This document shows, piece after piece, positions 882-35,895 of a DNA stretch of 35,895 nt. Position 1 is the first letter of the stretch. Each line of letters opens with the position of its first letter. The notes under the pieces are model-generated. The model was not told the origin of the DNA and made no database searches. It saw only the letters and a program-made list of their open reading frames with translations. Source of the DNA: Folioceros fuciformis (taxonomy: Eukaryota); assembly GCA_049999805.1 (NCBI GenBank), contig JBNGIO010006223.1, positions 62,636 to 98,530 of the forward strand, read 5' to 3'. Made by a program: the position numbers and the translations under genes.

Positions 882-2271
882 CTACAACTTGTGGATACTC
901 AGATCCACTGCATCAGGTAGGGTGCCGTCTTCCAGCTTCTTCCACCAGCCGAAAAGAAAATTGTCCACGACAATACGGAACCAAGGTGACAGCTTGATAC
1001 CGTCCTCACCAGCATCTGCCTTTCTCACTAGCTCTAGCAACTGCTCCTTGTTCACAAACTGGACATCAGATACCTCATCTGGGTTAGGCTTTACCTCCAC
1101 ATCCCTTTTCAGGGCGAGAAGATAGTCCACTGGAGTCACGACAAGACACGTAATAAGCTCCTGGTAGAAAGGATGGTGCGCAAGGAACAAAGAACGACAA
1201 GCTGTGAGCATCTTACGTTCATGCTCTCCCCATTTTCCATCAGACGGAGCCTTGTACAGGATGCGTCCAAGAACAGTGAAATCGTCTACCGGAGCATCCT
1301 TAGCAACTATGCCAAGCTCGTCGAACAACTTCCTCTGAGCTGCATTTCTGACACCTGTCACCAACGACCCCAGATGAGAAAAATGCTCGACCAAACCCGC
1401 TGCACAATTGACTACCATGCAAACGACTGGAAACGTCAAGACCTAAATTGTTCTCCGCGATGAGCTCCGAATCCCGGTAGAGAGGGTGACTGCAGCATGT
1501 GTTCGTCCACACCTCAGGGAATGTCACCTTTGTGGCAGACCGTTTCTGCATGTGCGTTTTACAAAGGCTGTCAGGAAATTTCTTCAGAACCAGCGCCACA
1601 GCCTCAGCTTCATCACAGTACCTGGAGGAGCAGCTCGTTTTTGGAGTTGAAAAGAAAGACGCTGAAAGCCCGATGGAGAAGGTTTTCAGCTTCAATCTTC
1701 GCCATCAAGTGACCTGATCGCAAGCCAGAATTAGCCACGGAGCACCCAGATAAGAAAAACTGCTAGGTCAAGACACAGAACACCGGGAAGGGAACGCACA
1801 ATTGTACTTGGAGTCATGGCCGACAACATTGTCGTGCTCATCCACCAAGATGCACCTGCACGGCATTTTCGAGTACAATCCCTTACGTTCCCGAAGCCCT
1901 AGCTAGCCTGACATTCCGAAAAAGCAGGATCAAGCACCCGAACGCCCAGCACAAAACAATCGGCCGTGCAGACGAGGCCAGGCCAAGCCAACTCACTCGT
2001 CCTCGAACATGAGGCGCTGCTGCACCGCATCCATCACCTCCACTTCCGCCATCCCGGTCACAGACGACGCGAGCACTGGCGCAAACCGGGGCAAGTTCCG
2101 GGAGGGGGACGGGCTCCAGAGAGCGTCACAGCTGGGAGCAGGAAGGCGTCGGAAGGAGGGATGCTGCCGCAACGAAAGGCCACGCACAGATGAAGGCGCA
2201 GGAGATCGGCACAGGGAGGAGAGGCGTGCCGACCACCTGGAAGAGAGCGTCCCTATCGAGCCACAGGACAT
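882..2271 (-). CDS. IDI: Isopentenyl-diphosphate delta-isomerase (type I, Nudix fold), 6 exons, N-terminal transit peptide
   Basis: Hand-spliced GT-AG exons give [86 protein letters not shown]..|[22 protein letters not shown]|..[21 protein letters not shown]. Probable ATG at 2271 (MSCGS, Ser/Arg-rich); second ATG at 2052 (MAEVEV). Confidence 0.96.
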
Positions 2272-15300: not shown

Positions 15301-17124
15301 ACATTGCAAATAGAAAGCCAAACTTTTTGGTTGGCTATCTGGCTAATGTGATCTTGAAGATAAATGCGAAGGTACACCTTCTGCACCTTATGGAATGGAA
15401 TGTTTTCATCTTGCAAATTGAGCGAGCTCTCATTACTGTTTTGCTTGCTTGCAGTGTGGGGGATTGAACTCTCTTCTGATGAATGAAAAGATGAAGCGAC
15501 TTCCTCGCATCTCTTCCAGCCCAACAGTCCTTATTGGCGCAGATGTATCACATCCACGCGTGGGGGATGACTCAAGTCCCTCAATTGGAGCTGTAAGTGA
15601 AGGCCAACTGCACTGTCACTGACTTGCCTTCGCACATCTTTTAGTTGCTACTCTTGTTGAGTTCCCTGTGCAGAGCTTTTTTTTTCCACTCCTTGTTGAT
15701 GTTGTCACAACCTGTTCACTGCAGGTTGTTGGGTCTGTGGACTGGCCACATTTTGCAAAATATGTGACGAAAGTTAGAGCACAGTCTCACCGCACAGAGG
15801 TGCTTGAAGATTTGTTCTGGGAGAAGACTGATGAACAAGGGAGGAAGCAAACGGGTGGTATTTTCAAGGACCTGCTGACCGTCTTCAAAGACAAGGTTTC
15901 CAAGAAGCCGGAGCAGATAATCTATTTCAGGTACGGTGCGCGATGTTTTCCTGCGTTTGTGATGAGATCATTCATATGGGAAGACGCCTCATTAGGCATG
16001 TCTGGCAGAGATGGTGTCAGTGAGGGCCAGTTTGACATTGTGCTGCGGGAGGAGTGCGATGCCCTCAGAAAGGTGGCTCTTTCCACTTTGTATGTGCAAG
16101 GACTTATTTGCATAAAAGTCTGCTCACTCCTGCTCACGCAGTATTGTACAGGCATGTGTCTCTCTAGGATGGGGAAGCCATGCGTCGGGCGCCCCTGGTG
16201 GGCCGGCTCAGAAAAAGTCTAAGATGGACACACCGAGGATCATCTTCATTGTTGTTCAAAAGAGGCATCATACTAGGTTGTTTCCATCGGAGAGCCGTGA
16301 TGATAAGCAGAATGTTCAGCCAGGTGATCTGTCTTGGGTTCCATTTCTTATTTACTGTATGTGAAGTTGATGTCAGTCAGTCACGCAGAAAGAGGTTCGG
16401 TGTGTCGGTCTAATCAGTGTTGTGGTTCAACATGGGCAGGCACCGTGGTGGATCGAACAATCTGCCAGCCCAATCATTTTGACTTCTTTCTTTGCAGTCA
16501 TGCTGGCCTTCAGGTGTGGTTGTTGGTTGTGACTCTGTGGCTGGATAGCGGACTTGAAGACGCCGCATACTTGCCACACTTTTGGTTGCAACGCGTTTGT
16601 GAAAAGTCGAAAACGCTGTGCAGGGAACGTCGAGGCCTGCACACTACCACATCTTACTCGATGAGATAGGGTTTTCTGCTGATGACATCCAGACTCTAGT
16701 GAACGAGTTGTGTTACCAGTAAGAGATGCTGAGAAATCTTGATTTGTCGCTGACCTTGCCTGTCTTTGGAACGCTGATCCAACCCAACCTTGTTCCGCGT
16801 CCGTGGGCATGCAGGTATGCTCGCTGTACCAAGGTGGTCTCCATTGGTAAGTGGTATTTTTTGAGAAAAATGTCGCTTGTCACTCGCAAGCTAACTCTCG
16901 TGTCTTGCACAGTTCCCGCGGTGTACTATGCTCACTTGGCTGCAAAACGAGCAAGAGATTGGATAGACTTTGAAGGATCTTGGGCCTCGGAAGGAGGATC
17001 TCACCAGGAGACCGGCAGTATTGTAAGCGCGGGTAGTGGAAGCGGGCGTGTGCGTGGAGCCTGCACCGTTAAACCCTTGCCCCAGATCCATGAAAGAATC
17101 ACGAAATCCATGTATTATATTTAA
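12331..17124 (+). CDS. AGO: Argonaute A (N, L1, PAZ, L2, MID, PIWI), 20 exons, intact, DEDH tetrad
   Basis: All exons join in frame at GT-AG sites: [155 protein letters not shown]. Confidence 0.97.
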
Positions 17125-17897
17125 GGCCGTCAAGTCTGAGGGAGCAATACGGTCCACGGGATTCATTGCGTTAAGGAATCCTGGACGCATAAACATTTCC
17201 CAAGTGATTGGCCGAGATTCTGATGGAGCGATCGCGCCAAGGCGTGTGGGACCATGTCCGGCACCATCTTCTGATGCTCACGTTCGCTTTCTGGGAATCG
17301 AGTTATCTTTTAACACCCTTGATACCAAGTATGCCCGACTTTGTGAGTGGATACCGCTGGTACATCTACGTATATTTATTAACTTGCAGATGCCCACAGA
17401 ATATATGCGGTCTTTCAGCAAACCAGCAGCACAGGCACTGTGCATACATACACATCATACACCAGTCACCCAGCTCAAAGTCTAATAGCGACCATGAAAT
17501 GCACGTCACACATGGGACAGCAGCCAGGGGAATGCAGCATGTTTCAGAACGGGTAAGCACCGTAAGCAGACACATTGCATTTGTAGCTCATCAGGACTTG
17601 TAACTTCAACTGGACCTACAACATCTCTTCCGACAGTGGTCGACATCCTGCGTTCAGCTACGTCTACTCAGCGTTTGCACTCGTAGCGCCGATGTGGAAT
17701 TTACTCTCCAATTCCGAGTACAAAAGAAAATTCAAGAACCGAAAATTATGTCACTTCTGATAAGAAAGAGCGTGTTGCGTGCTCTCGCGCACTTGCACAC
17801 ACCTCTCTCTTCCCCTTCCCGAGGAGCCTAACCTCTACAGTCCACATACTATATTATGTAGATACTATCACGAGACCAGTGGCCTCAATACCTGCTC

Positions 17898-20800
17898 CTA
17901 AATGAAATACATATGTCGTTTCAGTTTCTCGTTGATCACAGGCAGTGGCCGTACGGGTCCCAGCGCCCCACGAGCTCGTGCGGAGCGGCTTGAGTTGCTT
18001 CCCACATTACTGTCTACATCAGGTCGTGAACTCCCTCCGTCAGATAGGGCATCATAGTCGATCCAAATCCGAGCTCGGGTCGCAGCGAGATGCGCATAAT
18101 AGCAGGCTGGTACTGCACATGCGTCTCACATGGATTACTAGTCTTACAATCAGGTGGCGATTCACATTACAAAGTTATGCATGGATTTTGCACTCACAAC
18201 AAGTGACCATAAGTACTTACCAATGGACACGGCTCTTGGACAGCGAGCATAGCTGCCACAACCACAACGAACGTGTGAGAAGGTACATCATAGTTACATG
18301 AATTATAGTAGAAATGTGTGCCTAATTTAGTCACTTACTTGTGGCAAAGGTCGTTGGTGAGTTTCTGGATTTGGTCAGCAGAAAACGAATTCTCGTCGTG
18401 GACAACATGATAATGTGCAGGCCTGCTTGTCCCCTACAGGAATTGTGATGTGGATCACTATTTAGTAGCTCATTACTCTGAACGCGCAAAGAAATAATGA
18501 AAAAAACCAATATTGCTACAACCTGAATCCCCAAATGGCTGCAAAGAAAGAAGTCAAACTGGGTGGGATGGCAGATTACAGAATCCACGACAGTTCCTGT
18601 ACACACATAGACAGCTTCAAAATGATAACAACAAAATCAACAGGCTAGCTAGCTGACAAAACTAGCCAGACGACCCAACCTGGAAAAATGTTCCCCGTTT
18701 TTTGGGTTTTTCGGCGATCCCTTGGAAACAGACGAGTATGGTGTTGTTTCTGAACGACAATGAAGGTTATCTTGGGAGTAATGTCATTCTCCGATGCGCG
18801 TTGCTTCTTAGGAGCTGGCTCCTCTTGTCCAGGTTGTTGAACCCAGCCAAGAGCCTGGCATGCCTGTCAGTGGTTCACGACGCAGGGTTTAGCACAATTG
18901 CATTTCCATAAGGCCAAGCCCTTCTGAATGTACCCGAATGTACAGAGTGTGGTATACCGCTTTCACGGACTCCAGTTCTTGCTTCATGACAGCTTCAAAT
19001 TGTCCATCGCTTACTCCGTCTCTGCAAATCACCGTTCAAGTCCTGCAAAAGCTGATCGACAATTTCCAGGCACAAAATGGATTGTATGCCAAACCTGTAG
19101 AAGAGTATTCTCTGTGGTCGTTTTCCTGTGTTCCTCGCAAATGATGCCAAGAGATCCCTGCCAACCCCCAAAAAACCAATGCTCATATTCAGCTTGTAGA
19201 TGTACTGACATGAGAAAGAATATTAGAACCACGCAGCAAAAGCTTCTTGGCCTGTATGAAGGACTCCGGGAAAGTGGTTTTGCAACAGAAACTGCGTTCA
19301 GGAGACAAACTTACATTACGATGCCTCCAGATTCCTTTTGCCCCTCGTCATTCACTCTTTCCCAATACAGGTCGTCTAGAATTTCAGTTCGATGGGCTTG
19401 GCTTCGTGTCAGAGTCTCATATCTGGAGAGATTCGGCCAGTCCATGCTGGCAACCACCTGCAGAACGAAGGAGGTCAGCACATGTCAATCTAGATACTAC
19501 ATTACAGGGATGTCGACTGTCGTATGAAAAAGACTGTGAAATGCGTACGTACCGCGGCGATGGACGGACTACGGTCGTCTCCAACTCTGGGATGCGACAC
19601 ATCAGCACCGATGACTATTGACGGGACATCAGACAACAAGGGAAGTGGTCTAGAATTCACGTCCACCAACAGTGCATTGTTTCCCCCTAGCTGCTTGGAC
19701 ATATTCAGAAATCGGTGAAATCGGATCAGTAAATAGGCTGGGCATGAGCAATACTAGTTCTGGAACAGAAAATCTGGATAGTCAGCTTGTTATCAAGCCA
19801 CGTCGTTTACCTTCATGTTGATCTTAAGGATAACGTTCTGGACGTACGCTGGAAGACATTTTTTAAGTGCCTCTCCAGATTTCAGACACTGCGTCATGAA
19901 TCCGAGCTCGACATCACAAAGCTTCTTGACCGCTCCTGAACGGCATTCCAACACTTTTTTGAACAGCGTTGAAAGATTTCGCCATACTATGACAGAAAAG
20001 TCTAGCTTCAGCGTTCTTAAAATTGGTGAACCAGTTCACAGGGACTTACCGTACATTGCCTTGTTCTCCATGGTGGTGGGCAGGATGCAGATCAACAGCT
20101 CCAAGTCTCTACCAGTTTTGTCTTTTGCTTCCTTGCAGATGTGGTGGATGGTTTTCTCAACGTTCCCCCTCCGGTCTGCTATCCAAGGGCAAGCCATCTT
20201 TGGATTGATATCCTGTACGCAACGACAATCAGTTAGGAAGCAGCTAGGTACCGTATCTTCCAAGCGGAACAACTAAAATCGAAGAGCACCCTTTCGCAAC
20301 ATACCAAGCCGTAAACGATGCAGTTTCTCACAAATGTCGAAATAAAGTGCTCTATTGCATTGTCACTAAGCTGTGCGGCGAAACTGATTAACGTCCACTG
20401 TTTGATGACGGAACTCCTGAACATCGTCTTTGCAACAGTAGCCATTATACAGATTTCAGAATCCTTGTTTCGCTAGGACCTACACTGTAAAGCGGTTTTA
20501 AAGATCAGGGAAGTTTTCAGATGGATGAACCGTACCTTCCCATTCATTTTCCACCAGCCCTCTTCAGGAAGAACTTCTTGCCGTTGTCCATATAGGATCT
20601 GGAACACATCCGTACAGAGAAGTTCAGACGTGGGGGACGTTCAGAAAGTTGGAAGGACCTATCTGACCGGACCTTGGGTGCAGGCAATATTCGTCCTGTG
20701 ATTTCGGCCATCCGACTGCTGACTCTAATACCGAACTCTTCGGCATAGGTGGCGCTGGCGTTTATGCTTCTCTTGGCAATCTGCATTTCAGGTGTCGAAC

Positions 20801-22904
20801 AAGTTAGGTGGGGCAAGATACAAAATAACAGGGAGCTATCCAAACTTACGTTGTTTGTCTCTTCCAATCTATCCGCTGGTCTCGAGCACGTCATCCTCAG
20901 CAAGGCATCAACCTGTGCTTCGTTGAGTTTCTTTGTGTGGCGCTGACCACGCACAATTCTGCACAGCTGTTCAAGGCCGTCGACTTGGTATTTGCATTGA
21001 CGTCTGCTCTAGACATCTGCATCGACTTTTGGGGCGCATCTGGTTTTGCAATATGGGGTAAGTATGCTCACCTCCATGGGTATGTACGTTGACTTCTCCT
21101 TTGTACCGACTTCAATAGCCGGCAGCCCAGCAAGGATGATGCCGTGATTATGGCGCTCTCTAAAATACTGAATGATACCGATTCTTGTTCCATTGTGATC
21201 GAACCTACAACGTTCACCAGAGACCAAAGAACAAACGCGATGTCATCCAAAGGGATACCGGGTTCCATAAACCCGTTGAGTCGTATGCGTATACAAAGCA
21301 GAACCTGTCCCGCGCGAAGCAACTTGAGAGAGTAAGTGAGGCTTACGACAGTTCGGAGAGGGGGACATTCGTGACGTTCTGGATTCGATATTTGCGTTTG
21401 GTTCCGTAGATGAGCTCAACTCGAACTCCTTTGAGGAGCTTCTTGATCTGTATGCACGTCAGATGTACAACATCAAGCGTGGAGCGTTCTTTTTGGCTGG
21501 GACGGAAAAATGGACAGCTCTCTGAATTGGGCTCCTACTTTCACTCGTGATGCGTCGCCACGACCATCAGGCCCTTGTAGCTCCTTGTTCATCTCGTTGA
21601 TATCAACTCTCAAAGCTTTTGCGATGTAGTCAGGCAAGAGATCTGGCTCCAGGAATGCGTTTGCGGAGATGTCTGCCATCCCCAGCGAAAGTCAGCTGGC
21701 TTATGTTACATGAAAGCTAACGTCATGCATTTCGATGATCTCATGCGTCATCACAAGGTAGCTCTCTGTTCCACCATGCACAGGCACCTAAGAGAAACTG
21801 AGAAACTGCCACCAAGATTAGTCACAGACAGTCGAGCAGGTAGGATGCAAGGACTCTCGTACCTATGTTGAGAATGAGCTTGCCGTTTTGTGCAGGCCGA
21901 ACCGACTGGTAAAAGCCTTTCCAAGCCATAACCCCGTTGCCAAGAGATTTGTTCCCAAAGCATTCATCAAAGAAGGACCTCCCGCCTGGCAAGAATCTGC
22001 ACATCAAAGTCAATCGAGCCGATGAGAATGAAAGAAAGCGGACAAGGAAGGGAAGTGTACAGAAGGTTCATGTCTAGAGTAAAATATGGGCAGATTCCGA
22101 CTTACCTTTTTGTTGCAGACTCACGTAGCACAATGTCTAGGGCTTGCAAGGCCTTCTGGGGAAGAATGGGAACGGTGCCCTCAAGAAAGGCTCGCAACTG
22201 AGCCAGATCGACCCTAGAAGCCTCCCTCAAAATCACGTGAAATGAGCGATTTTTCCTGCAACAGAGGAAATCGATGAACAAATAGTAGTGTGAACCCGGC
22301 CCCAAAGAACCGAACAGTGGAAAGAAGCAGTGAAGAACCTCAACACTACTTACCGGGTTCTGACGACCGGTCCATCGCTGTCGGTGTTTTCCGGCAACGT
22401 GATGTCGAGCTCAACTTGCTCAATGGGCAGAGGCTTAGCAGTATACAAACTCTTTTGTCCATCATAGGCGGGGAGGGCTCCACCCAGCTTCTCCATGCGG
22501 TACTCAGCCACCAGCGCAGTCATCACAGCTCGATTGAGCCCCCTTGGCACATCCGGGGAGATAGTAACCTGCAAGAATCGATATAGCATCCAACGTTGGT
22601 AGACGGACTAACTAGCCGGAAGCCAATTCGACGTGCCGCATCACTGAATCATCCTATGCGATAAGATGCTTACGTCGTAATGGTAGAGGAGCTTAGGAGT
22701 GAACTCGATGAGGTAATGATTCGCCAAAATTTTCACGGGATCTCCCACTGAGCCGTGATTCGGTCTCCTCGCCAGACTTGGTTTCGAGGCCGCCATGGAT
22801 CTGATATTCGGGCTGGAGGTGGTAGCAAAATCACCACGCGGTGTGTCTGGGCCCATTCGCTTCCTGGAGGCGAACCGCGGCGGGGAGGCCATAGTGGAAA
22901 GCAT
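17898..22904 (-). CDS. AGO: Argonaute B, 22 exons, intact, DEDH tetrad (ATG at 22904 or 22892)
   Basis: In-frame spliced exons: [156 protein letters not shown]. Confidence 0.97.
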
Positions 22905-23479
22905 CCTTCCAGAACTTGCTGTGGCACTAACGATCAGCTGTGTCACTCCAGAGCCGGAGCGTAGATGTAACAGAGGTCACTCAGCTAGCACCAACGTCTA
23001 TGTAGAAATATCTACGAATGGGACCGCGGACGTAAGCGACACCGAAGCCACCGCACGTCTAGACTGCAACTTGAAGCGATCTAACAAGACTGCAAACTGT
23101 GGAGCATCACCAGAAAGCAGAGCCGGGCAATTGTACCGGAGCGTAACCAGGAGCAGAAGCAAGAAAGAGCAGGGGAAGATTGCGGCTGAGGAGAGCGCAG
23201 CAGATCTAGAGCTCAGAGCGGATAGCGCATCAGAGATGGAGACGACGGAGAGGAGGGGAGAGCGCCGCACAAAACAAAGGAAAGCATTGGCGAAATTTGG
23301 TTGCAGAATGCCAGGCACGGGCAAGGCCGGCTCACTCAACCTTGAACTACACCCTCACTGTCTGTGACATGATCACGTACGCTTGGCGCCAGTGCACGTC
23401 GGATCGTCTCTGGGCGTATCAGAACCGGTTGGTATCCCTTTGTACCGTCTGCACCACGCGCGCGTACGTCACTTGGAAC

Positions 23480-23513
23480 TATCTAGAGTGATACAAGAGT
23501 ATCACTCTAGATA
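23480..23513. repeat. Perfect 15-bp inverted repeat with 4-nt loop
   Basis: tatctagagtgatac-aaga-gtatcactctagata. Confidence 0.9.
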
Positions 23514-23660
23514 CGAGAGGAAATGCGTCTGTCGCTACCGTGTTAGGAGACCAGGCCCTGGGTGTTAAGTTGACACCGTCTAGCAAACTAAATCAAACAT
23601 TATATCTCATCATTTTTCTTAGTTATTGTTTATACCTAGAGGTTATTTGCACATAAAACC

Positions 23661-24830
23661 TCACGTCCCTTGCTTACATGTACAATAACCCCAAGCGGTT
23701 CCAGCACCACTCACAATATTTTTGCGTGTTGTCCCATTGTCCTGAGTGTTGACATAAGTAATATTTGGAGAGTCTGGAGTTGGTAAGACCACATGGTTGT
23801 CTAATATGGCTATTGCTTTTTGGAGAGCACTCCGCACAATGTTTTCTTGCTTGGAATTTCGAAGCATGCCAACTGCCTTACATTGGGCTACATACCAAAA
23901 GTGCCCGATAACCTCTTCGAACAAAATATGCAGCAGCCAATCCAATCGCCGATTACTAAGCGTTTTCTTGGAGGGCAAACATCTGTACTTCAGATGTTTG
24001 TGATATGCTTCTATGGACGAGTTGTAATCTTGTTTGGCATGTGGAATTGTCCTAATTGCTTTAATCCACTGTAGCATGTTAAAACCCCACTAGTCTTTAA
24101 AATACTTCACAAAGCTGCTAGCAAACTCCTGAAAGGTAGTTTGGATGCACGCTTGGTTTATGTCTACCCCAACATCAATGTCCATATGCATGATGTCACC
24201 TAAGGATTTCATACTTGCATACCAAGTGTCGAGTGCTGCAACCAAGCCCTCCAAACATGCCATAGACACAAGAAAACCAGCACGTTACTTCCAAACACAG
24301 ACTTAATGCCATTTATTTCTGCCATACAATCATTTACCAGAAAAGCGGTTGCCAATCTAACCTATGTAGAAGCATCCTTGCTCGTAAGGATTCCAGCCAC
24401 TATGAAATATTGGCTGCCGTAGCCTTGCTGGTAATCACCCAAGCAACAGGGATATCGTTAAAATGGTCGTAAAAAACCAATAGAATGAATAGCTAGAACT
24501 CCACTTATGGGTGCCAAATGTGGCATCCATAGATATCACTGACTTATGACCCAGACGTAACATGGAGTGTAACTAAAAATCTATTTGGATGCCTAACATA
24601 AAATCTTTGGCATGTAGTTCTTCTCCTAGCAAAGGGAAAAATACCTCCTCCCTGCGGACATCCGTCCATAGCTTGATAATCACCTCATCATTTACATGGA
24701 ATCGCCACACCCTGGAATCCAACTCTGCTTGCAAATTCCTTATATCTCCAGGCAACAAAAAAATTATCCTGTTCAAGGAAAAAATCATCTCGCTCAAGGA
24801 CTGCTTACACATCATGATGATTCCTTAAAA
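23661..24830 (-). mobile_element. Degenerate Mutator-like (MULE) transposase with start of a SWIM zinc finger
   Basis: Minus-strand fragments in the expected order: VISMDATFGTHK (first D), FLVND..AEINGIKSVF..FLCLWHVWRAW (second D region and CxxH), DYNSSIEAYHKHLK (E), YCTCKQG (SWIM start). Interrupted by stops and frameshifts; AT-rich. Confidence 0.8.
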
Positions 24831-24911
24831 ACTATTAGAAATGAATAGTAGTTTAGGGCAACACATCAAAAGGATAATTGTTCCAAATTAATTTATGCCA
24901 TATCAGAGAGT

Positions 24912-25216
24912 GGTAGAAGAACTTTGCTTGTAGTTTAAGCAAGGTTATTACTATAGAACAGATGGTGTATAGAATAGTAACATGNNNNNNNNNNAGCAAG
25001 GTTATTACTATAGAACAGATGGTGTATAGAATAGTAACATGGTGACCCTCCGGTAGAAGAACTTTGCTTGTAGTTTAAGCAAGGTTATTACCATAGAATA
25101 GATAGTGTATAGAATAGTAACATGGTGACCCTCCGATAGAAGAACTTTGCTTGTAGTTTAAGCAAGGTTATTACTATAGAATAGATACTGTCTAGAATAG
25201 TAACACGGTGACCCTC
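24912..25216 (+). repeat. 83-bp tandem repeat (about 3.5-4 copies) spanning an assembly gap, probably within the copia LTR
   Basis: Unit ggtagaagaactttgcttgtagtttaagcaaggttatta..atagaatagtaacatggtgaccctcc; ggtgacc recurs at 25041, 25124 and 25207. Confidence 0.88.
24985..24994. other. Assembly gap (10 N)
   Basis: Run of n characters inside the 83-bp array. Confidence 0.99.
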
Positions 25217-25370
25217 TAGTATACAAGGGGTCATGGCCACACTCTATAGTGTAGTGGTGAATAGATAAGCATCAGTGTTTGAGCTGATTCAGCTTGTACA
25301 TGTTGTCCACCCTCCCATGTCTTGTAAAATATTTCCCCTCAATAAAGGCTAGATTCATATATTTCTAACA

Positions 25371-25383
25371 CGGTATCAGAGCC
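25371..25383 (+). promoter_or_regulatory. Primer-binding site complementary to the initiator Met tRNA 3' end
   Basis: cGGTATCAGAGCC directly after the LTR-terminal CA (canonical TGGTATCAGAGC). Confidence 0.8.
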
Positions 25384-25488
25384 ATGTTCTAGAGCCTAAG
25401 TAGTTTTCTCTTGGTCAGTATAGTTGTGTACTCGTGTCAACACCTCTTTTGCATAGTTCTTAATAGAGTGCTAGAAAGAACTCGTGTG

Positions 25489-27458
25489 CAAATGCTAACA
25501 ATGGAGAAGATCTCTAGAACATGGTATCAAAGCCATGTTCTAGAGCCTAAGTAGTTTTCTTTTGGCTAGTATAGTTGTGTACTCGTATGAACACCTCTTT
25601 TGCATAGTTCTTAGCATAGTGCTAGAAAGAACTCGTGTGCAAATTGTGAAGGTATTGATAGTATTCATTCTATAGCAAGAGGTTGAAATTCGAGAGGATA
25701 TAATAGATGGCGTCAACAAGCATGGAGACACGTTTCATTCAGACATGCTCGATGGAGAAGTTTGGAGACAAGAACTTCACACTATGGAAGTTAAAGATGA
25801 AGATGCTTCTCATTGACAGAGAAGTATGTAAATTCGTCAACAAGGGTCTCGAAGACACACCCACCGAAGGAGACCTTGATAAGGATGGACGAGCATTAGC
25901 TGCAATCCTTCTTAATGTGTCTGATGACATACTCTCTCAATTGAGTGAGTGTGCAACATCGAAGAAGGCATGGACTACCCTTTGCGATATGTATGAAAAA
26001 AGAAGTATGTTGAGTGAGATGTTTTTGGAGTAACAACTGTCCAACTTCAAGATGGTTGAAGCGGACACGATTCAACAGCACGTCAACAAGTTGAAGAACT
26101 TGGCCTTGAGATTTTTTAGCAAGGCTAGGTACAAGGTGTACATCCTTTATAGTACCTTTGGACTTTTTACTAAGTAGTGTTATCTTTATGACACCTTTCC
26201 CTTAAATCTCGTGTGATGTGTTATCACTAAGCGCTAATGTGTTATTACTAAGCGCCACCTTATGCCATGTTGGCATTTCTTTGTAGCTCGAGATCTAGGG
26301 TCGGTTGTAGGTAAAGTGTTGAGATGCTTCAGAGTCTAGGTATAGACTCTCATCCTTCCTTGATGAGCAATCTCCCACTATCTCTATTGTTGAAGCATAA
26401 AAGAGATTTTCATCCCGCTCACTTACTTGATTGGCTTGTGATTGTTTTCCCTTCTTCAAGTCAACCAATCTTGTCCTACAGTCTTTTGCATGATGGTTAG
26501 GTTTCTTACAGTAATGACAAGTACCCCATGTCTTTTTCTTTGTAACTTTCTCCTTTAATCCTTCATTGGAGTTGTCATGTGAGGTCTTCCCTTTGTGTTT
26601 TTCCTTTCCTTGAAAAAAGTACCGAGTCACCTTTGTATTCATTCTCGAATGCATTCACTAGCTTCTCTTGTAGAAGCAACCCAACCACCTCTTCTATTGT
26701 TGCTTGTTTATTACTTGAATGCATCGCCGCTGATGTCCTAAAAGACAACACAAACTACATGTACGCAGATGGTAAACTATTCAATAACAGCATAATAATC
26801 CTTCGTTTAGAAGGTTTGATGTCTATAGCTTGCATTTGATCAACCATGTTCTTCAACTTATTGACGTGCTGTTGAATTGTGTCCGATTCAACCATCTTGA
26901 AGTTGGACAGTTGTTACTCCAACAACATCTCACTCAACATACTTCTTTTTTCATATATATCGCAAAGGGTAGTCCATGCCTTCTTCGATGTTGCACACTC
27001 ACTCAATTGAGAGAGTATGTCATCAGACACATTAAGAAGGATTGCAGCTAATGCTCGTCCATCCTTATCAAGGTCTCCTTCGGTGGGTGTGTCTTCGAGA
27101 CCCTTGTTGACGAATTTACATACTTCTCTCTCAATGAGAAGCATCTTCATCTTTAACTTCCATAGTGTGAAGTTCTTGTCTCCAAACTTCTCCATCGAGC
27201 ATGTCTGAATGAAACGTGTCTCCATGCTTGTTGACGCCATCTATTATATCCTCTCGAATTTCAACCTCTTGCTATAGAATGAATACTATCAATACCTTCA
27301 CAATTTGCACACGAGTTCTTTCTAGCACTATGCTAAGAACTATGCAAAAGAGGTGTTCATACGAGTACACAACTATACTAGCCAAAAGAAAACTACTTAG
27401 GCTCTAGAACATGGCTTTGATACCATGTTCTAGAGATCTTCTCCATTGTTAGCATTTG
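25489..27458. repeat. Long inverted repeat: arms 25489-26103 and 26844-27458 (~615 bp each), ~740-bp spacer
   Basis: The arms are reverse complements with only about 7 mismatches seen by eye; the ORF track shows near-identical proteins on opposite strands. Confidence 0.95.
26295..27458 (-). mobile_element. Inverted second copy of the same copia element: PBS, gag, zinc knuckle, start of protease
   Basis: gag ATG at 27240, premature TAA at 26914, CHYCKKPNHHAKDC (CCHC knuckle) and YLDSEASQH (degenerate LDSGAS protease motif) in ORF 26295-26654. Confidence 0.88.
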
Positions 27459-27459
27459 G

Positions 27460-27750
27460 ATCTTAGCATCCCTAGATATCATTGACTTGTGACCCTAACG
27501 CAACATGTACTGTAACTGAAAATTTGTTTGGATGCCTAACATAGAATCCTTGGCATGTAGTTCTTCTTCTTGGCAAGGGAAAAATACCTCCTCCGTGTGC
27601 ACATCCATCCATAGCTTGACACTCATCTCATCATTTATATGGAATCGCCACACTTTGGAATCCAACGCTATGTGCAAATTCCTTATGTCTTTAGGCTGCA
27701 AAGAAATCATCCCGCTCAAGGACTGCTTGCACATCACAATGGTTCCTTAA
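27460..27750 (-). mobile_element. Second, diverged MULE transposase fragment (paralog of ~24530-24830)
   Basis: MMCKQSLSGMIS..DIRNLHIALDSKVWRFHINDEMSVKLW..MLGIQTNFQ versus MMCKQSLSEMIF..DIRNLQAELDSRVWRFHVNDEVIIKLW..MLGIQIDF. Confidence 0.75.
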
Positions 27751-28268
27751 AAACATCTTAGACTCATGGTCAATCAGGATTTGAAAAGTAGTCATCTTGT
27801 GGAGCAACAGATAAAGGAGCAAGGGTACAATTTGAAGTTAAATCACTAACTAGCAAACCATGACAATACTCTCCTGTGCTCCCTTTGATGTAGTCTCAGT
27901 TCACCAACCTCAGAAAACATCTCCAACTGTATTACAAATAACAACAACTGCTCCCTTTGCCTAGCTTTGGCTTGTTAGTGATGTGCGCACGAATTGCAAA
28001 ATCTGGAGGAGTTTGCTTTGGATAGCCATAAGCATAGGCAAACTTGATGTAGTGCCGAGGAGTGGTAGATGAAATTCCTCTTTTGCCTCACATCAGATCT
28101 GGTCCAAACATTAGTAGCCCTTATCAATTATTTGGGGAAGAATGTCGACTTCTCTTCGCCAGCAATGAAATCTGGGTACTTCATCTAGGGAATGTAGCAA
28201 CGTTTCACACAAATCACCGTCTGCCGAACAAGATGCTCACCATCCTGCCAATTCAATGTCTCCTAACA

Positions 28269-28355
28269 GAAACGACCAGGACGTGGATTACTTCAAAAGG
28301 GCAAGGTTGAGGAAACGACCAGGACGTGGATTACTTCAAAAGGGCAAGGTTGAGG
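28269..28355 (+). repeat. Exact 43-bp tandem duplication
   Basis: gaaacgaccaggacgtggattacttcaaaagggcaaggttgag occurs twice (28269 and 28312). Confidence 0.9.
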
Positions 28356-28446
28356 CAGGATGAGGGCACCCACATTCCTTCTTGGCATGGATTGTCTTCT
28401 CTGTTTGCTCTGTCACGACCAGGTGTGGAGCTTGGCCTCGCGAGCG

Positions 28447-28614
28447 CGCGGGGATACGGCACTTTCAGAGTTTTCACGGGGATACGACATTTTCAGAGTT
28501 TGCACGGGGATACGACACTTTCAGAGTTTGCACGGGGATAGGACACTTTCAGAGTTTGCACGGGGATACCACACTTTCAGAGTTTGCACGGCGATACGAC
28601 ACTTTCAGAGTTTG
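28447..28614 (+). repeat. 28-bp minisatellite, 6 copies
   Basis: Consensus cacggggatacgacactttcagagtttg with 0-3 substitutions per copy. Confidence 0.93.
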
Positions 28615-28821
28615 CATTTCTTCTTCAAACTAAAGACGGGTTCAGGAATACATAGACATATGGGCATACGGTACGTATAGCAATACGGTATAGCTATACT
28701 ACACGTTGAAAATGCCGTCGCGCCGAATGGGAGAGTGGATGAGCGCGCGCCTAATGAGAAAGTGGATGAGCGCAATGGCATGACCGCTGCGCTGTGCCTC
28801 GCTGACCATGGTGAGTCGGCA

Positions 28822-28933
28822 CTTTGGTTTCCGTGCTCGCATTAGCAGCACAGTGATCATTTGCTTTCCGTGCTCACATTAAGACACAGTGATCATTTGG
28901 TTTCCGTGCTCGCATTAAGAGCACAGTGATCAT
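28822..28933 (+). repeat. ~37-bp tandem repeat, 3 copies
   Basis: tttg(g/c)tttccgtgctc(g/a)catta..cacagtgatca occurs three times. Confidence 0.85.
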
Positions 28934-29155
28934 TAGCGCCTGCCGTCGACGACACTCAGTTCACCTGTGGAGTTTCTGTACATGTTTATCAAAGTAGTAA
29001 TCTAGGTGAATAAATACTAATCCGCTTTCAGACGGTGCCTGCACATGTTTTTCGCATAGAAGTGAAAGTTCAAACGATTTTGAAATGCAATCACGGACAA
29101 TGCTGTAACTATATGGAAATAAGGAGTATTGCCATTGTCGAGCCGTAAGAAAGAA

Positions 29156-31618
29156 CTAGAGCTGGTTAGCTACTTCAGTTACTACTTCCGTGATATCAGA
29201 ATACTGCCGTCTTCCCTTCAACAAATGCTTGGCGAAAGTCAAGGCCTTCCTCTCGCAGGAGGCTCTTCTATCCAAATTTTCAATCGACTCCAAATCCTCA
29301 ACGTGGGCAATGCCCACAATCCTCCTAATCATCTTAGCTGCAGCATATCCAAGAGTATCCTCCAGCAGGCTTGCAAAATACTGGCTCTGGACAAGTTTGC
29401 GTGACTCAGGAGTGTTGTAGATGTCCGGCGGGTAGGCATCCCCTGTATTGGAGTCCCAACTTGCATCCCACAGTGTCGTAAACTTCGTCACCAACAGAGT
29501 CCACGTCTCCTGGATGGTGTGCAATATCCACTTTTTGTATTCATCCCTACCACCGGGAGCAGAAGCATGACCATCCTGAGAGTAAAATGACAACAACATA
29601 TTTCCAATGAAAGCTCCCACGTCGAAGCCCATGGGCCCATAGAAGGCGAATTCCGGGTCAATGACCTGGGTGGAAGTCTGGGTGACCATGATGGAGCCAG
29701 TGTGCAGATCACCATGCACCCGGGCCTGCGGACTTGCAATGAACTTGTTTCTAAGGGAGGCAATCTCAGTCTTAACAGACAAGTCGCCTTGCAGAGCTGC
29801 AACATCATCATCCAGGTGAGGGGAGGTCCAGCGGTTGTGGATATGGGTCATGTAAGGGTCGGAGAAGATGACCTGTTCTGTAAGTCTGCACATTTCTACG
29901 TTCTCGCAGAACTGAGCGACAGCGGCCTTGTAGTCGAGAGTAGACAGGGCCAAAAGAGAGGAATGAAAAAGAGTTTGGGCTACAAACTCAGAGATATGCT
30001 CCGCCAGGAGAGGATAGACAGTCCCTGCAATGAGGCCCTTCCGTAGGATAATATGAGGCGGCTCCAAATAGCGCATCACAGTGAGAGCCATAGGGTGGTC
30101 GAAATAAAAGACTTGAGGCACATGCTGGGGTACAACTCGCGCTTGTTCTCTCAACGCTGTTACCTCAAAGTAGGCACGCTCAATTGTCATTTTCCACGAC
30201 TCCCCCACGCACCGCACATAAGGAAGCGCCTGCTTGAGTACAAACGAGCCTTCCGGACCCAACACGATGTAGACGAAATTGAGATTGCCATCTCCCACTT
30301 CCTTGATCCTCCATTCGTCAGGAGTGCCCCCAAGTCGAGCTGCGAGCTCCGGCACACCCTCCACGTAAGCACGCACCTTTTCCTCCTTGAGTGCCCTGAA
30401 CCCCTTACCCTTACCCTTACCGTCGCCATCCTGGTGCCCGTTAGCCACGACCTCCGGAGCGTCGTCATCGCCGGTAGGACCCGCATCATTGCCAGCAAGG
30501 AAGGACGGCACATCGAACACTTCAGAGCTGGAGTTCTTGGCGATAACCCCCTTGTCAGTGATGATCGCCGAGATAAACCTGGAAGGCGTCACATCAAAAG
30601 CCGGATTCCAAACCCCAATCCCAGGCGCAGCAACCTGGACTCCCGAGCCGCCCCCGGCATGTGTGAGCTCCCGCGGATCCCGCTCCTCGATAACAATCTC
30701 CTTCCCGGAGCGGATCCCGGTATCCAAAGATGTGACAGGAGCCGCGACATAAAAGGGAACTCCATGCACAAACGCGGAGAGCGCGAGACTGTAGGTGCCG
30801 ATCTTGTTGGCCGTGTCCCCGTTGGCGGCAACGCGGTCGGCTCCCACCACCACCGCATGCAGGCGGCCGGAGGCCAAGAGCGCGGCCGCCGCAGAGTCGG
30901 CGATAAGCACACCCGGGATCTTGTCATGCACCAGCTCGAAAGCCGTGAGCCTGGAGCCCTGGTTGAAGGGCCTGGTCTCGGTGCAGAAGACGGTGTCCAA
31001 GGCGCCCCTGGCATGCAGCGCCCTGACCACCCCGAGCGCAGTCCCGTACCCCGAGGTGGCCAAGCTCCCGGTGTTGCAGTGCGTGAGAAGGCGCAGCTTC
31101 CGGCTCCCCTTCTCCCCCTGTCCCGCTATCACCAGCTCCGCGCCGTGCCAGCCGATGGCCTTGTTGGCCGACACATCGTCGGCCAGCATCTGCTCCGCCG
31201 CCTGCACGTAGGCATGGAACACAGCGGCCGCGTCGCCTGTCCCCGCTGCTGCTGCGGCGTCCGAGACCACCTGCTTGAGCTTGGCAGCGGCATCCGCTAG
31301 GTTGACGGCCGTCGGGCGGCTGGAAAGGAGGTGATCGAGGCGGTCTGCGATGAAAGAAGCGGCCTGGGGGGCCGAGGACGGCACAGGCAGCGCCGTGAGC
31401 TCCACGGCGAGGGACAGGGCGGCGGCGATGGCGATCGCAGGCGCCCCCCGCACCACCATGTTCCGGATGGCGCGCCATCCGGCGGCCGAGTCTGGGACGT
31501 CTACAAACACCGTCTGCGCGGGCAACTTGGTCTGGTCCAAAAGCTGCAGCTGGCCGCGAGAGTAGCGGATGGCCTGCAGCCGTCCGCTCTCCTTCTCCTG
31601 CTCCACTGCTTCTACCAT
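29156..31618 (-). CDS. MTI1-MTK: Intronless bifunctional methylthioribose-1-phosphate isomerase (MTI1/MtnA) - 5-methylthioribose kinase (MTK/MtnK) fusion, 820 aa
   Basis: N-half (~31618-30491): [72 protein letters not shown]. Linker of ~30 aa (30490-30401). C-half (30400-29156): [57 protein letters not shown]. Confidence 0.96.
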
Positions 31619-32429
31619 GGCTCGCTGCTCGCCTTCTTCTCCCTTGTTCTCGACTCCCCGTCAAGTTCTTTTATCCTACACTACCTGGCCTACTTTCCTG
31701 CACGTCGTGTGGCTGCATTCAGTGAACCTGAAAGGTTCTCCTTCAGGAGACTCTGTACTTGCATACATCCATATAACGTGACCTCCGTAGATAGATAGGA
31801 TATTCCATTCTCTCTGAAGGACCCCGCCGGTACACGTGGAATACTACAGTACGTACGCGTGACCTTATTCATACAACTCCTTATTTCCTCACAACTCCCC
31901 GCTTGAATCTTTGGAAGGCAGCGGTCAGGCGTGACATGCCAAACTTTTTTCAGAAAATTATTTTCTATTGTACTTGCTTTTGCCATCATGACAATTCAAA
32001 ACAATTCAAAAACTGCCTTGCCTTCTTGGGCCCCCCCTTCCCATACTGCTGTTCGACTCCAGCCTCCTCTTGGCACTTCGTGTGGTGAAAGGCTCTCCCG
32101 CGACATTCCTCATCCATGAAGAATCATCTTGCAAGCAACAAAGCTTAATTGGAAATCTCCAGAGACACCATCAATACCCCCAGTCAATACACGACCAGCG
32201 TAGTGCGCTGGGACAAGGCATATAGGGGAAAGAGCGAGGGGAGCTGGATTCCATTTGGCCATAGAGGAGTAGCACCGAAGGAGGGGCAAATCCCGTGACG
32301 GCCACAGAAACCCGAATGATGCCCATGTTGCCGCACCCCCTGCTGGTTGGTGGAGTGGGCCTTCAGCTTGTAGAGCGAAATAGCCTTTGGAACCTCTGCG
32401 GAACTATGGTCGCCGCTTCGCACACTGGG

Positions 32430-35134
32430 TCACACAATCACTTCTCTCAAAGCCGCTATCAGGGCCTTCGGGTCGTATATCACCCCGACCTTGTCATCGC
32501 GCATTGAATCAACCGTCACCTGCAGGAGCGACCAGATCATTGCCACACGCACGAATAATGAGGCCGAAGATAAGAAATGAAGATTGTCACCTTACCACAT
32601 TAGTTACGCCAATGCCCGCCAACATTTCCAGATCCAAAGCAATCTCTCCGTCCTTCGGGACCAACATCACAGACACATACGTCGATGGCTGCAAACAGGA
32701 TATGGCAACTTAGCCAAAAACCTGGTGGCTACGAAGTGCAAATTTTTTCCACTCCACAACAAATTATGCGCGACGTAGTCATACCGGGTGATTCAGGGAG
32801 TTATCTTGATCATCACAGTACTTTCGGTTCAAAGCGTCAGCGAGGGAGACCACAAAGTCCGATGCCATCATTCCCTTCGTCTCTCGGTCATAGGTACCAT
32901 TCAGTATGAACACCTGAAAAGTTGAGAAATGGACAAGCTTCAGAACCTGGAAACGTCTTTCACTCATTTTCCCCCAAATAACAAAAGAAACCGTCCCATA
33001 ACCGAAGGAGCATTGCCAAAAAACGAAGATGGAGAACACTCGTTCTAAATACTTGCAACAATTACTACCTTGGGACACATTTGTCTAGATATTGCTTCTC
33101 CAACGCCTCGCAACACCTACACAGGGTGGATGAAAACTCAATTTCAAGAAGCTGCCAGGTGCTCCGACATCACCGAATGCCTAGGTACTGACCAGAGACG
33201 GACACACAGACGTGTAGAAAGACCCCATTCCAAATATTATGGCGTCCACCTGGGACAGCTGCTCAAGCACGGTTGCATTGACCGTTGGGTAGACCTACAA
33301 ATACCCATGACGTTGCATTATGTTAGGTGACGACAATTGTGGCAGCAGACACAAGTGAAATGAAGAGAAGGCGCATGGTAACCTCATGTAAAAGATTGGT
33401 GCCCTCGCTTGACATGTAGAAGATTCGCTTGATAGGAGCTGGAAGCGGAGGAGATGCGTGCATGACCTAATTGAGCAACCACGTCCAAAGTAGAGAAGGG
33501 AGTTAAAAATCACACTTGTTGGCCGTATACAGTGGGCATCAACCTAAGAACCTCACCTTGTTGACAGTGTGCGACAATTCACCAGCCAATTTCTCAACCA
33601 CAGGGTGCGATATCTCATTCTGGCCCCTAATTATGGAGCCATCCTGCCACGGTACGTAAGTTTTGGAGTCAGAGACCATAGATACCAGCCCCCAGGCGAC
33701 GAAAATACTCACTCAAGGGAAACAAGTGATGGAAAAGCAAATGGCACCCACATGTAGCTCACAACCAAGTGTCAGCCTATCGTTAGTGCATATCGCAGGA
33801 AGCACAAGGCTCTCTGCAGGAATCTGAGAAACACGTGAATACAGAAAAATGGCTGCATCTAAAGAACCAAAAAAAATTCGAGCGCCAGCAAAGAAAAAAT
33901 TGCCGATGCTGCAAGCAAAGACCTGCAGCAAAGTTAGAGACCAGACGCTTTTTAATCAAGTCGCAAAGGGAGGATGGAAAGCAGGGCCGTGATATGATGA
34001 AGCACACACGAGCAGCTTGTAACATGGTGCACAAAAGAGGGAAAAGATATGAAAACTGACCTCCCATTGGAGAAAAGGAATCGATCGTAAGAGCGCTGAA
34101 GAATCTGCACCAGGTGCTAGACTGTGTGAGTGCGTGGTGACGGGGTAAGAGTGCAGTGAGCTAAAATCGAATGACAAGAGAGGCAGAATTGGAATGCACG
34201 AAACCAATTCCCACCTGACTCTGAAAGTGGACGAGAAATGCGCGGATAGTTTCCCTGTAAGGCCCAGACACACCCTCCCACAGCGAGTGCTGTCCTTCCA
34301 CAATCTCGTACCTGCAAATGTGCAAGAAAACTGGTCGTCAGTCCAAACATGCGGCAGCCTGGCGCCGGACTGCCGCAGCTGAGAAAAGACAAGCCCTACC
34401 ACTCAGCCTTGGCCCTGATGTCATCAATCGGGAGCCGATGGCCTAAAAGTCGCCTCACGGCCAAGGCCTCAGCCGAGCCCTCGTCAGAAAGGCGCATGCA
34501 CCGGGACCGAATGTCTCCGACAGCAGGGCCTCCTGCGGCAGAGTGCACGGTACTGTGTGAAGAAGCGCCACACTCATCGTCCAGCAGAGTAGTGGATGGG
34601 AAAACGGGGACGCACCGAGCACACGCACAATCTCCGCCGTGCTGCCCCCATCGTCCGAGACAGGCAACACGTGCGCGACGCGGGTGGTGAACTTCTTCAA
34701 TTCCTCCACCACCCCGTTGAACGCCGTCCCACCTGTACCCAAGCCAGGTGCGGTGAGGGTGAGGCTGCCAGCCCGGTTCACCCAATCAGGCTTGGAGCAG
34801 GAGTCGGCGCGGGCCTCTTTCCCGGTCCGACTGACGTACCGGAAAACACCACCATCGAAGGCTGGTGCATGCGCAGAGGGCGCGGCGGCATGAGGTCCCC
34901 TAGAGCCCCCATGCCAGAATCCTCCTGCGGCAGATCAGCAACGGACTGCGGAGACGGCATCGGCATGGGCACGATGGGCAGGGCGCCTGCGCCATGCAAT
35001 GCCCGCCTCCTGCATTGCCACGGCCATGCCGGGAACGCAGCAGCGCGTGCCGCAAGAACGCGAAGGTGAGGAAAGGGAATAGGAGTGGGAATCGCAGCGG
35101 GCGGGCGCCATCCGGGCCGCACACCAATGTCCAT
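32430..35134 (-). CDS. UPF0052 / YvcK(GlmR)-CofD-related protein (yeast YNL011C-like, Arabidopsis MEE18-like), multi-exon
   Basis: Spliced exons: MVVFSG|GTAFNGVVEELKKFTTRVAHVLPVSDDGGSTAEIVRVLG|GPAVGDIRSRCMRL, SIGNFFFAGARIFF, GQNEISHP, PIKRIFYMSSEG, AIIFGMGSFYTSVCPSL|VLRGVGEAI, LNGTYDRET, YDPKALIAALREVIV*. The start codon is provisional (MDIGV at 35134). Confidence 0.88.
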
Positions 35135-35789
35135 GTCCCAGCCGGCCGGCCATGGAGCCTGTGGCATCGGACAGAACGTGTGTCCACTCCGGCTCCACAC
35201 TGGACGGAACCACCACCCCTCAAAGCAGCAGCCCGAAAGCATGGATCGATTATTCATTTCATACGTCTGCAGCATCTGGCCCCCTCCCTCCGGTAACGGA
35301 ACAGCTCCCGTTCCGTCACGATGCAGCTGGAAGTGGGGCCCGACGGCTCTAGACCTCCGTCGTCGGCTTCTCCTCTTCCCGAGGACGAAACGGTCAAGAG
35401 TGCATTATTGAGTCTCAGCAAACGGCTGAAATGAAGAATTCACGAGTCGCGGGGTGGGTCACTACGGCCTTGGTAGGTACTAATGGGGATTTGACGCGTC
35501 TCTTGTTGCTGTGGCCAAAGGAAGGAAGGCAGGAAGCAGCAATCGTGGCTTCCTTTTTAGGGCGGCTGGTCTCTACTCCCGAATCCTTCACGAACATTCG
35601 GCCTGCCCTTCGTGGGACCCTCCTCCCTTTGGGTAGCTCTTAGAGTCGGTTCCACCCGCGGTTAGGCAGTACATAAATGTCCCTGCGCCGCGTCGAGTAG
35701 TATTGTGTTGTCTGCTCCTTTCGCCTCCCCCGCCACTCTGTCTGTCGCGGCGTCGGATTTTTCCCCGTTTCCCGCTTTTCTTCGCAGAC

Positions 35790-35895
35790 ATGGCTCCCAA
35801 GGTTTATGGAATGGCGGGATCGACCTGCACCGCCCGGGTGCTGGCCACTCTGTACGAGAAGGGGGTGGAGGAGGTGGAGCTGGTACCGATCAACC
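35790..35895 (+). CDS. GSTF: Phi-class glutathione S-transferase, 5' end only (runs off the window)
   Basis: MAPKVYGMAGSTCTARVLATLYEKGVEEVELVPIN matches the KVYG..ST..RVL..L.EKG N-terminus of plant phi GSTs. Confidence 0.85.
   Translation, partial: MAPKVYGMAGSTCTARVLATLYEKGVEEVELVPIN

Follow-up and report, generated by a model that had tools for sequence, protein, structure and literature searches.

Fusions between consecutive enzymes of methionine salvage have been described before. Salim et al. (2009, PMC2759508) named mtnAK in the ciliate Tetrahymena thermophila (XP_001031773), where a protein of 779 amino acids (aa), supported by expressed sequence tags, carries MtnA at its N-terminus and MtnK at its C-terminus. 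The same fusion is likewise given there for Ostreococcus tauri, Phaeodactylum tricornutum and two Micromonas genomes. MtnAK has since been repeated as a predicted enzyme by Nakano et al. (2013, PMC3698126) and Sekowska et al. (2018, PMC6302742). Here, we analyzed a gene of this type in a 35,895-nt stretch of the Folioceros fuciformis contig JBNGIO010006223.1 (positions 62,636-98,530 of the contig; assembly GCA_049999805.1). The whole stretch is called the window below, and all coordinates refer to it. A first-pass annotation, made from the sequence alone, had reported one open reading frame (ORF) that joins an isomerase and a kinase, and had mentioned a Tetrahymena fusion, which does exist and is that of Salim et al. 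Judged from sequence, the ORF very probably belongs, as an orthologue, to the known bifunctional MtnAK enzymes of methionine salvage (the Yang cycle), and the fusion would be ancestral in the green lineage.

In such an enzyme, the C-terminal kinase domain would convert 5-methylthioribose (MTR) and ATP into MTR-1-phosphate, and the N-terminal isomerase domain would turn MTR-1-phosphate into methylthioribulose-1-phosphate (MTRu-1-P). The two domains would fold independently on one chain, with a flexible, non-conserved linker of some 30 residues between them. The coding sequence and the parts of it on which this proposal depends are as follows.

29156..31618, minus strand: mtnAK coding sequence, one unbroken ORF of 820 codons plus stop, without intron
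30494..31618, minus strand: N-terminal half (aa 1-375), MTR-1-phosphate isomerase MtnA/MTI, IF-2B family
31067..31084, minus strand: THCNTG motif with Cys181 (aa 179-184), aligned to THCNTG of human MRI1
30833..30844, minus strand: GADR motif with Asp261 (aa 259-262), aligned to GADR of human MRI1
30401..30490, minus strand: linker of 30 aa (aa 377-406), rich in Gly, Asp and Lys, predicted disordered
29159..30400, minus strand: C-terminal half (aa 407-820), 5-methylthioribose kinase MtnK/MTK
30278..30295, minus strand: G-loop GDGNLN (aa 442-447), identical to that of A. thaliana MTK
29702..29716, minus strand: HGD catalytic loop HGDLH (aa 635-639)
29651..29659, minus strand: Mg-binding DXE motif DPE (aa 654-656; IDPEF at aa 653-657), followed by Phe657
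29321..29326, minus strand: RR motif (aa 765-766)

An in-frame stop lies 14 codons 5' of the mtnAK ATG, at 31663-31661, and the ORF therefore has no further 5' extension. We compared the translated protein with curated models and found that each half passed its own NCBIfam equivalog: TIGR00512 (salvage_mtnA) with 446.6 bits (cut-off 279), matching aa 15-360 to profile positions 1-334 of 335, and TIGR01767 (MTRK) with 467.7 bits (cut-off 275), matching aa 408-815 to profile positions 2-399 of 401. Because both halves reach E < 1e-130 against these models, the observation of a fusion is far beyond chance, and the annotated single-ORF MtnA-MtnK fusion of 820 codons is upheld. The broader Pfam families agree, with IF-2B at aa 56-360 (231.1 bits, cut-off 22.4) and APH at aa 438-671 (48.9 bits, cut-off 23.2). 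A tblastn search of the window with the mtnAK protein returned only the gene itself and two weak matches (E values of 0.024 and 8.3), and no second MtnA- or MtnK-like sequence was present in the window. The GC content at third codon positions is 0.82-0.90 over the first 240 codons and falls smoothly towards the 3' end of the ORF, where it is about 0.56. Since this fall is gradual, it shows no seam between two recently joined genes.

The kinase half could be compared with a solved plant enzyme. The structure of Arabidopsis thaliana MTK (2pyw) aligned end to end with the C-terminal half (555 bits, aa 407-819). Ku et al. (2007, PMC2194712) described the functional elements of that enzyme as a GXGNXN G-loop, an HGD catalytic loop with D238, a Mg-binding DXE motif followed by Phe, and an RR motif that binds MTR. 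All four elements are identical between the window protein and A. thaliana MTK, and counting along the 2pyw alignment places Asp637 at D238 and Phe657 at F258 of the Arabidopsis enzyme. Conservation was then read from an alignment of 43 fused proteins, namely the window protein and 42 of its best 120 database matches. G442, D443, G444, N445, N447, H635, D637 and H639 are invariant in this alignment, and so are D654, E656, R765 and R766. A Foldseek search with the AlphaFold2 (AF2) model of this half matched 2pyw_A with a TMt of 0.97 and a root-mean-square deviation of 1.1 over 415 columns. Aminoglycoside phosphotransferase proper was also considered as an identity for this half and was rejected, with PF04655 (APH_6_hur) scoring 19.9 against a cut-off of 27; among these models the general APH superfamily model alone passes.

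The isomerase half gave a similar picture. Human MRI1 (4ldq) aligned to aa 14-362 with 354.7 bits, and the AF2 model of this half matched 4ldq_A and 2yvk_A, both with a TMt of 0.89. The Cys of THCNTG and the Asp of GADR are the catalytic residues in the Bacillus subtilis and human isomerase structures; a literature search for their residue numbers gave no pertinent result. T179, H180, C181, N182, T183 and G184 are invariant across the 43 fused proteins, as are G259, D261 and R262. All the motifs that had been picked out in the first-pass annotation (THCNTG, GADR, GDGNLN, HGDLH, DPE and RR) lie where they were placed. Both halves look catalytically competent by these comparisons.

The MtnA fold is also common to regulatory eIF2B subunits, and some database names read 'translation initiation factor fusion with methylthioribose kinase', among them that of the Chlorella sorokiniana protein. 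These two points could suggest that one half is catalytically dead, a regulatory or eIF2B-like module, and that the protein is monofunctional. An identity as an eIF2B regulatory subunit was rejected: the alpha and delta models are far under their cut-offs (NF006210, 59.1 against 339; NF004994, 48.9 against 249), whereas the MtnA equivalog passes. The Cys, the Asp and all kinase motifs are moreover invariant across the 43 relatives. We consider a dead half to be highly improbable.

The linker differs from the domains in its conservation. The linker of about 30 aa that had been placed at 30401-30490 corresponds to aa 377-406. Its mean column identity across the 43 fused proteins is 0.19, compared with 0.69 and 0.64 for the two domains, and the spacer from the invariant G357 to L425 ranges from 48 to 96 residues. 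The AF2 model, which was built on the same 43-protein alignment, has a mean pLDDT of 89 and a pTM of 0.56, and pLDDT falls below 50 at aa 1-9 and 379-404 only. Because pTM is only 0.56 and the linker is of low confidence, a fixed inter-domain arrangement is not predicted. The predicted structure is that of two confident domains and a low-confidence tether without a fixed mutual arrangement.

These results bear on whether the tether has a function of its own. The kinase and isomerase reactions are consecutive, so the tether might channel MTR-1-phosphate from the kinase to the isomerase, or dimerising halves might build higher-order assemblies. A. thaliana MTK is dimeric in the crystal and, according to its authors, in solution (Ku et al. 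2007, PMC2194712), and retention of the fusion across the green lineage, and also in a haptophyte, suggests some benefit. However, the variable spacer length and low column identity of the linker argue against such a function, and the low pTM and disordered linker mean that no defined inter-domain interface is predicted. Seed plants and the 80 prokaryote loci considered below use separate genes, and co-expression at a fixed 1:1 stoichiometry accounts for the retention of the fusion equally well. Channelling or higher-order assembly is thus rather unlikely in our view. A possible effect of the tether on channelling may interest plant biochemists.

We infer both activities of MtnAK, its cytosolic location and any kinetic gain of the tether. 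Because the protein has no N-terminal extension relative to human MRI1, it is probably cytosolic.

Expression of the gene was explored with run X1, which was compared with positions 15896-35895 of the window and which contains every sampled word of the query stretch. An X1 contig (record 3, 5384 nt) covers 28595-32517 on the minus strand with 0 mismatches and 0 gaps. This span contains the 3' flank, the entire mtnAK ORF including the linker, an 811-nt spacer and, from the upstream gene, its last coding exon. The contig then goes on in the 5' direction through 12 joints, and the skipped parts have CT..AC ends on the plus strand, that is, they are GT..AG introns on the minus strand. Because of these 12 splice joints in the upstream gene, the contig appears to come from spliced RNA. 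At the contig level, mtnAK is transcribed as one unspliced unit across the MtnA-MtnK junction; the X1 contig, of RNA type, runs unbroken over 30401-30490, and so transcript cover of the linker was found.

The same contig speaks to the possibility that two separate genes only seem to form a single ORF, as an artefact of assembly or reading. No support for an artefact was found, although the window contains 10 ambiguous letters (N). Not one of these letters lies within 28595-32517, the part covered by the X1 contig, which is an independent assembly that agrees with the window at every position there. The same architecture and linker position also recur in 118 of the best 120 database matches. 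An artefact is therefore hardly credible.

Some observations concern the ends of the transcript. The X1 contig ends inside a 28-nt tandem array, and because of this position the end is probably an assembly break. Four tandem arrays lie in and past the 3' untranslated region (UTR), at 28269-28934, with units of 43 nt (2 copies), 28 nt (6 copies), 27 nt (2 copies) and 36 nt (3.1 copies). A second, high-depth X1 contig overlaps 28775-28861 with three differences. Two runs of other organisms from the same study, X2 and X3, gave only pieces of 27-50 bases elsewhere in the comparison, and none on the ORF, even at 80% likeness.

We investigated how widely the fusion occurs in a protein database. Matches at E ≤ 0.001 numbered 1122 (proteins of 451-1435 aa), and the best 120 of these 1122 were used. 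PF01008 and PF01636 occur together in 118 of the 120 near-length matches. The two exceptions (Turnera and Musa) match roughly half of the query and carry only kinase families. The best match of all, P0002, has 70% identity. Among the matches listed, fused proteins come from the liverworts Marchantia paleacea (P0003), Calypogeia fissa and two Riccia species; the moss Ceratodon purpureus (P0007); the lycophytes Diphasiastrum complanatum and Selaginella moellendorffii (P0010); the ferns Ceratopteris richardii (P0013) and two Adiantum species; the streptophyte algae Closterium and Chara braunii (P0027); many chlorophytes, such as Chlorella sorokiniana (P0051), whose annotation was quoted above; and the haptophyte Pavlova lutheri. 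Other rows carry the EukProt prefixes Gb_, SM... and Chlat1, which we take to stand for Ginkgo, Spirogloea and Chlorokybus. The suggestion that the fusion is new therefore has to be given up: it was published in 2009, and annotated examples are widespread among green algae and non-seed plants. The gene studied here is genuine and transcribed, but it is an ordinary orthologue of this known fusion. What is gained is one more MtnAK orthologue, from a land-plant branch outside the named matches.

Prokaryotes were scanned with one genome per species and with patterns from the MtnA half, and 80 loci were kept of at least 600 matched. No fused gene was found in the 80 kept loci; 79 of them match the MtnA half only, and one locus, in Paenibacillus roseus, matches both halves.

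Stand-alone enzymes were searched for by comparing each half with proteins of 450 aa or less, and the best 120 matches per half were considered. Every organism-named row in both lists of 120 is a seed plant. Stand-alone MTI occurs there in flowering plants and in the conifers Cryptomeria japonica and Araucaria cunninghamii, and stand-alone MTK in flowering plants and in the conifer Wollemia nobilis. Together with the 2pyw alignment, these searches agree with the earlier remark that Arabidopsis encodes the two enzymes apart, as seed plants do.

To compare fused and split forms, a maximum-likelihood tree was calculated for each half. Both trees contained 30 fused proteins, that is, the window protein and 29 of the 120 matches, picked across the named lineages together with the best unnamed matches. 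Stand-alone proteins were added to each tree (9 of 120 MTI to the MtnA tree, 7 of 120 MTK to the MtnK tree), and the trees were rooted on the haptophyte row, which is one long-branched sequence. Both half-trees track plant phylogeny, and the window protein falls inside the land plants. It pairs with P0002 (support 100/98 and 100/99), and this pair does not group with the rows of liverworts, the moss, lycophytes, ferns or seed plants. Such a position would suit a land-plant lineage outside the named matches, a hornwort for instance. The MTI and MTK that stand alone in seed plants are nested deep within the fused rows, in a seed-plant clade with support of 96/87 in the MtnA tree and 97/95 in the MtnK tree. 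The Gb_ row (P0020), a gene model unchecked against RNA, lies inside this clade and is still fused.

Because the stand-alone seed-plant sequences nest inside the fused clade, the fused form appears to be the ancestral one in the green lineage, and the split seen in Arabidopsis a derived state. Both half-trees thus speak against the fusion being a new invention. According to the trees, conifers and flowering plants obtained their separate MTI1 and MTK genes by later fission of the ancestral fusion. Fission in seed plants took place once or twice, and the half-trees disagree on this point. The MtnK-half tree allows one fission (split clade 99/96), whereas the MtnA-half tree needs two, because there the Gb_ row groups with the conifers (100/98). 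The approximately unbiased (AU) test disfavours a single split clade (p = 0.029), for a group that was named after the tree was seen. The contrast between fused and split forms in seed plants concerns the rows P0020, P0126, P0155 and P0245. A statement of seed-plant fission was not found in the literature searched, which misses most subscription journals. The fission of an ancestral fusion into MTI1 and MTK may be of interest to plant biochemists.

Another role has been proposed for enzymes of this kind. Beaudoin et al. (2018, PMC6079011) reported that bacterial DrdK, a 5-deoxyribose kinase related to MtnK, takes both sugars, and proposed that the methionine-salvage kinase and isomerase could explain 5-deoxyribose metabolism in plants. 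The MtnAK pair might accordingly also, or even mainly, salvage 5-deoxyribose from radical-SAM by-products, as DrdK and DrdI do in bacteria. However, the best models for both halves are MTR-specific equivalogs, and among solved structures the closest is that of A. thaliana MTK in complex with MTR. DrdK and DrdI models were absent from the NCBIfam matches of the mtnAK protein, and no aldolase gene was noticed in a Pfam scan of the neighbouring ORFs, which covered 15 of the 40 window ORFs of at least 130 aa. Such a role is possible, though we would not expect it, and 5-deoxyribose turnover would be an extra activity, not another identity.

Several points weigh against reading the gene as an expressed bifunctional MtnAK. 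Run X1 is not recorded as RNA, and its RNA nature was deduced from the splice joints. Contigs neither prove that single RNAs span the linker nor rule out shorter isoforms, starts or ends. The search for paralogues spans the window, so a stand-alone MTI or MTK elsewhere in this genome is possible. Finally, MtnAK is treated as predicted only in the available portions of PMC2759508, PMC3698126 and PMC6302742, and a biochemical study of any MtnAK was not found in the literature searched, parts of which were available as excerpts.

The genes around mtnAK were also investigated. The features with coordinates are the following; those after the first two are side observations from ORFs and contigs.

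32430..35193, minus strand: CofD/UPF0052-like gene with 12 GT..AG introns of 76-155 nt, from X1 joints, intron ends and translation
31619..32429, minus strand: spacer of 811 nt, from the stop of the upstream gene (32432-32430) to the mtnAK ATG
17722-23377, minus strand: gene marked by a spliced X1 contig of its own (3459 nt; CT..AC joints at 18112-18522)
15668-16222, plus strand: piece of an ORF with a Piwi domain, Argonaute-like
8219-10828, minus strand: two ORFs (504 and 270 aa) with plant-type repeats and LRRNT_2, with the look of an LRR receptor-like gene
882-1439, minus strand: piece of an ORF with a NUDIX hydrolase domain

The LRR, Piwi and NUDIX pieces are in keeping with the nuclear genome of a land plant. 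Rfam gave 0 matches at the gathering score over the whole window. Three exons of the upstream gene match Pfam CofD colinearly (profile positions 7-42, 84-131 and 164-194), each individually under the cut-off. In the X1 contig, the CofD-like reading frame shifts between the exons 34058-34104 and 33751-33919 (junction 33919/34058), which may reflect alternative splicing or isoforms mixed in the assembly. A longer fusion of mtnAK with the upstream exons was considered and rejected: the upstream ORF stops at 32432-32430, and the in-frame stop noted above also precedes the mtnAK ATG.

The CofD-like gene and the intron-less mtnAK lie on one X1 contig; read-through, an overlap between their UTRs and a genuinely dicistronic RNA are all compatible with this. 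It is conceivable, but quite improbable, that mtnAK is a retroposed, intron-less copy lying within the last exon of the CofD-like gene, and that the two are transcribed together as a dicistronic nuclear plant mRNA. After the 3' UTR, we looked for the signs of a retrogene and found no A-run and no obvious target duplication, only the tandem arrays. If true, a retroposed copy would be another rearrangement of a gene that seed plants split again, once or twice.

We finally compared the Folioceros gene with the known systems. The MtnAK of Tetrahymena has the same order of MtnA then MtnK, a similar size (779 vs 820 aa) and the same proposed role of converting MTR into MTRu-1-P. The fusions of Salim et al. 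come from other lineages (a ciliate, prasinophytes and a diatom), and the likeness to Tetrahymena rests on the published description, not on an alignment. The fused proteins of non-seed plants and green algae share the domain order and the linker position, most with 47-63% identity over 93-99% of the length, and the trees place them as orthologues of the window protein; the sequence of the linker, however, is lineage-specific. In seed plants, the same enzymes come from two separate genes, and MTI is 62-67% identical to the N-terminal half and MTK 59-63% to the C-terminal half. The bacterial pair in Paenibacillus roseus (L066, 2908-5189, plus strand) consists of the same two enzymes, adjacent to each other, with 42% and 40% identity. 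There, however, two ORFs, mtnK (403 aa) and then mtnA (357 aa), overlap by 4 nt, and this order is the reverse of that in the fusion. DEP1 of Arabidopsis (MtnB-MtnC) and MtnBD of Tetrahymena are fusions of methionine salvage too, but they join other enzymes, and MtnBD fuses steps that are not consecutive.

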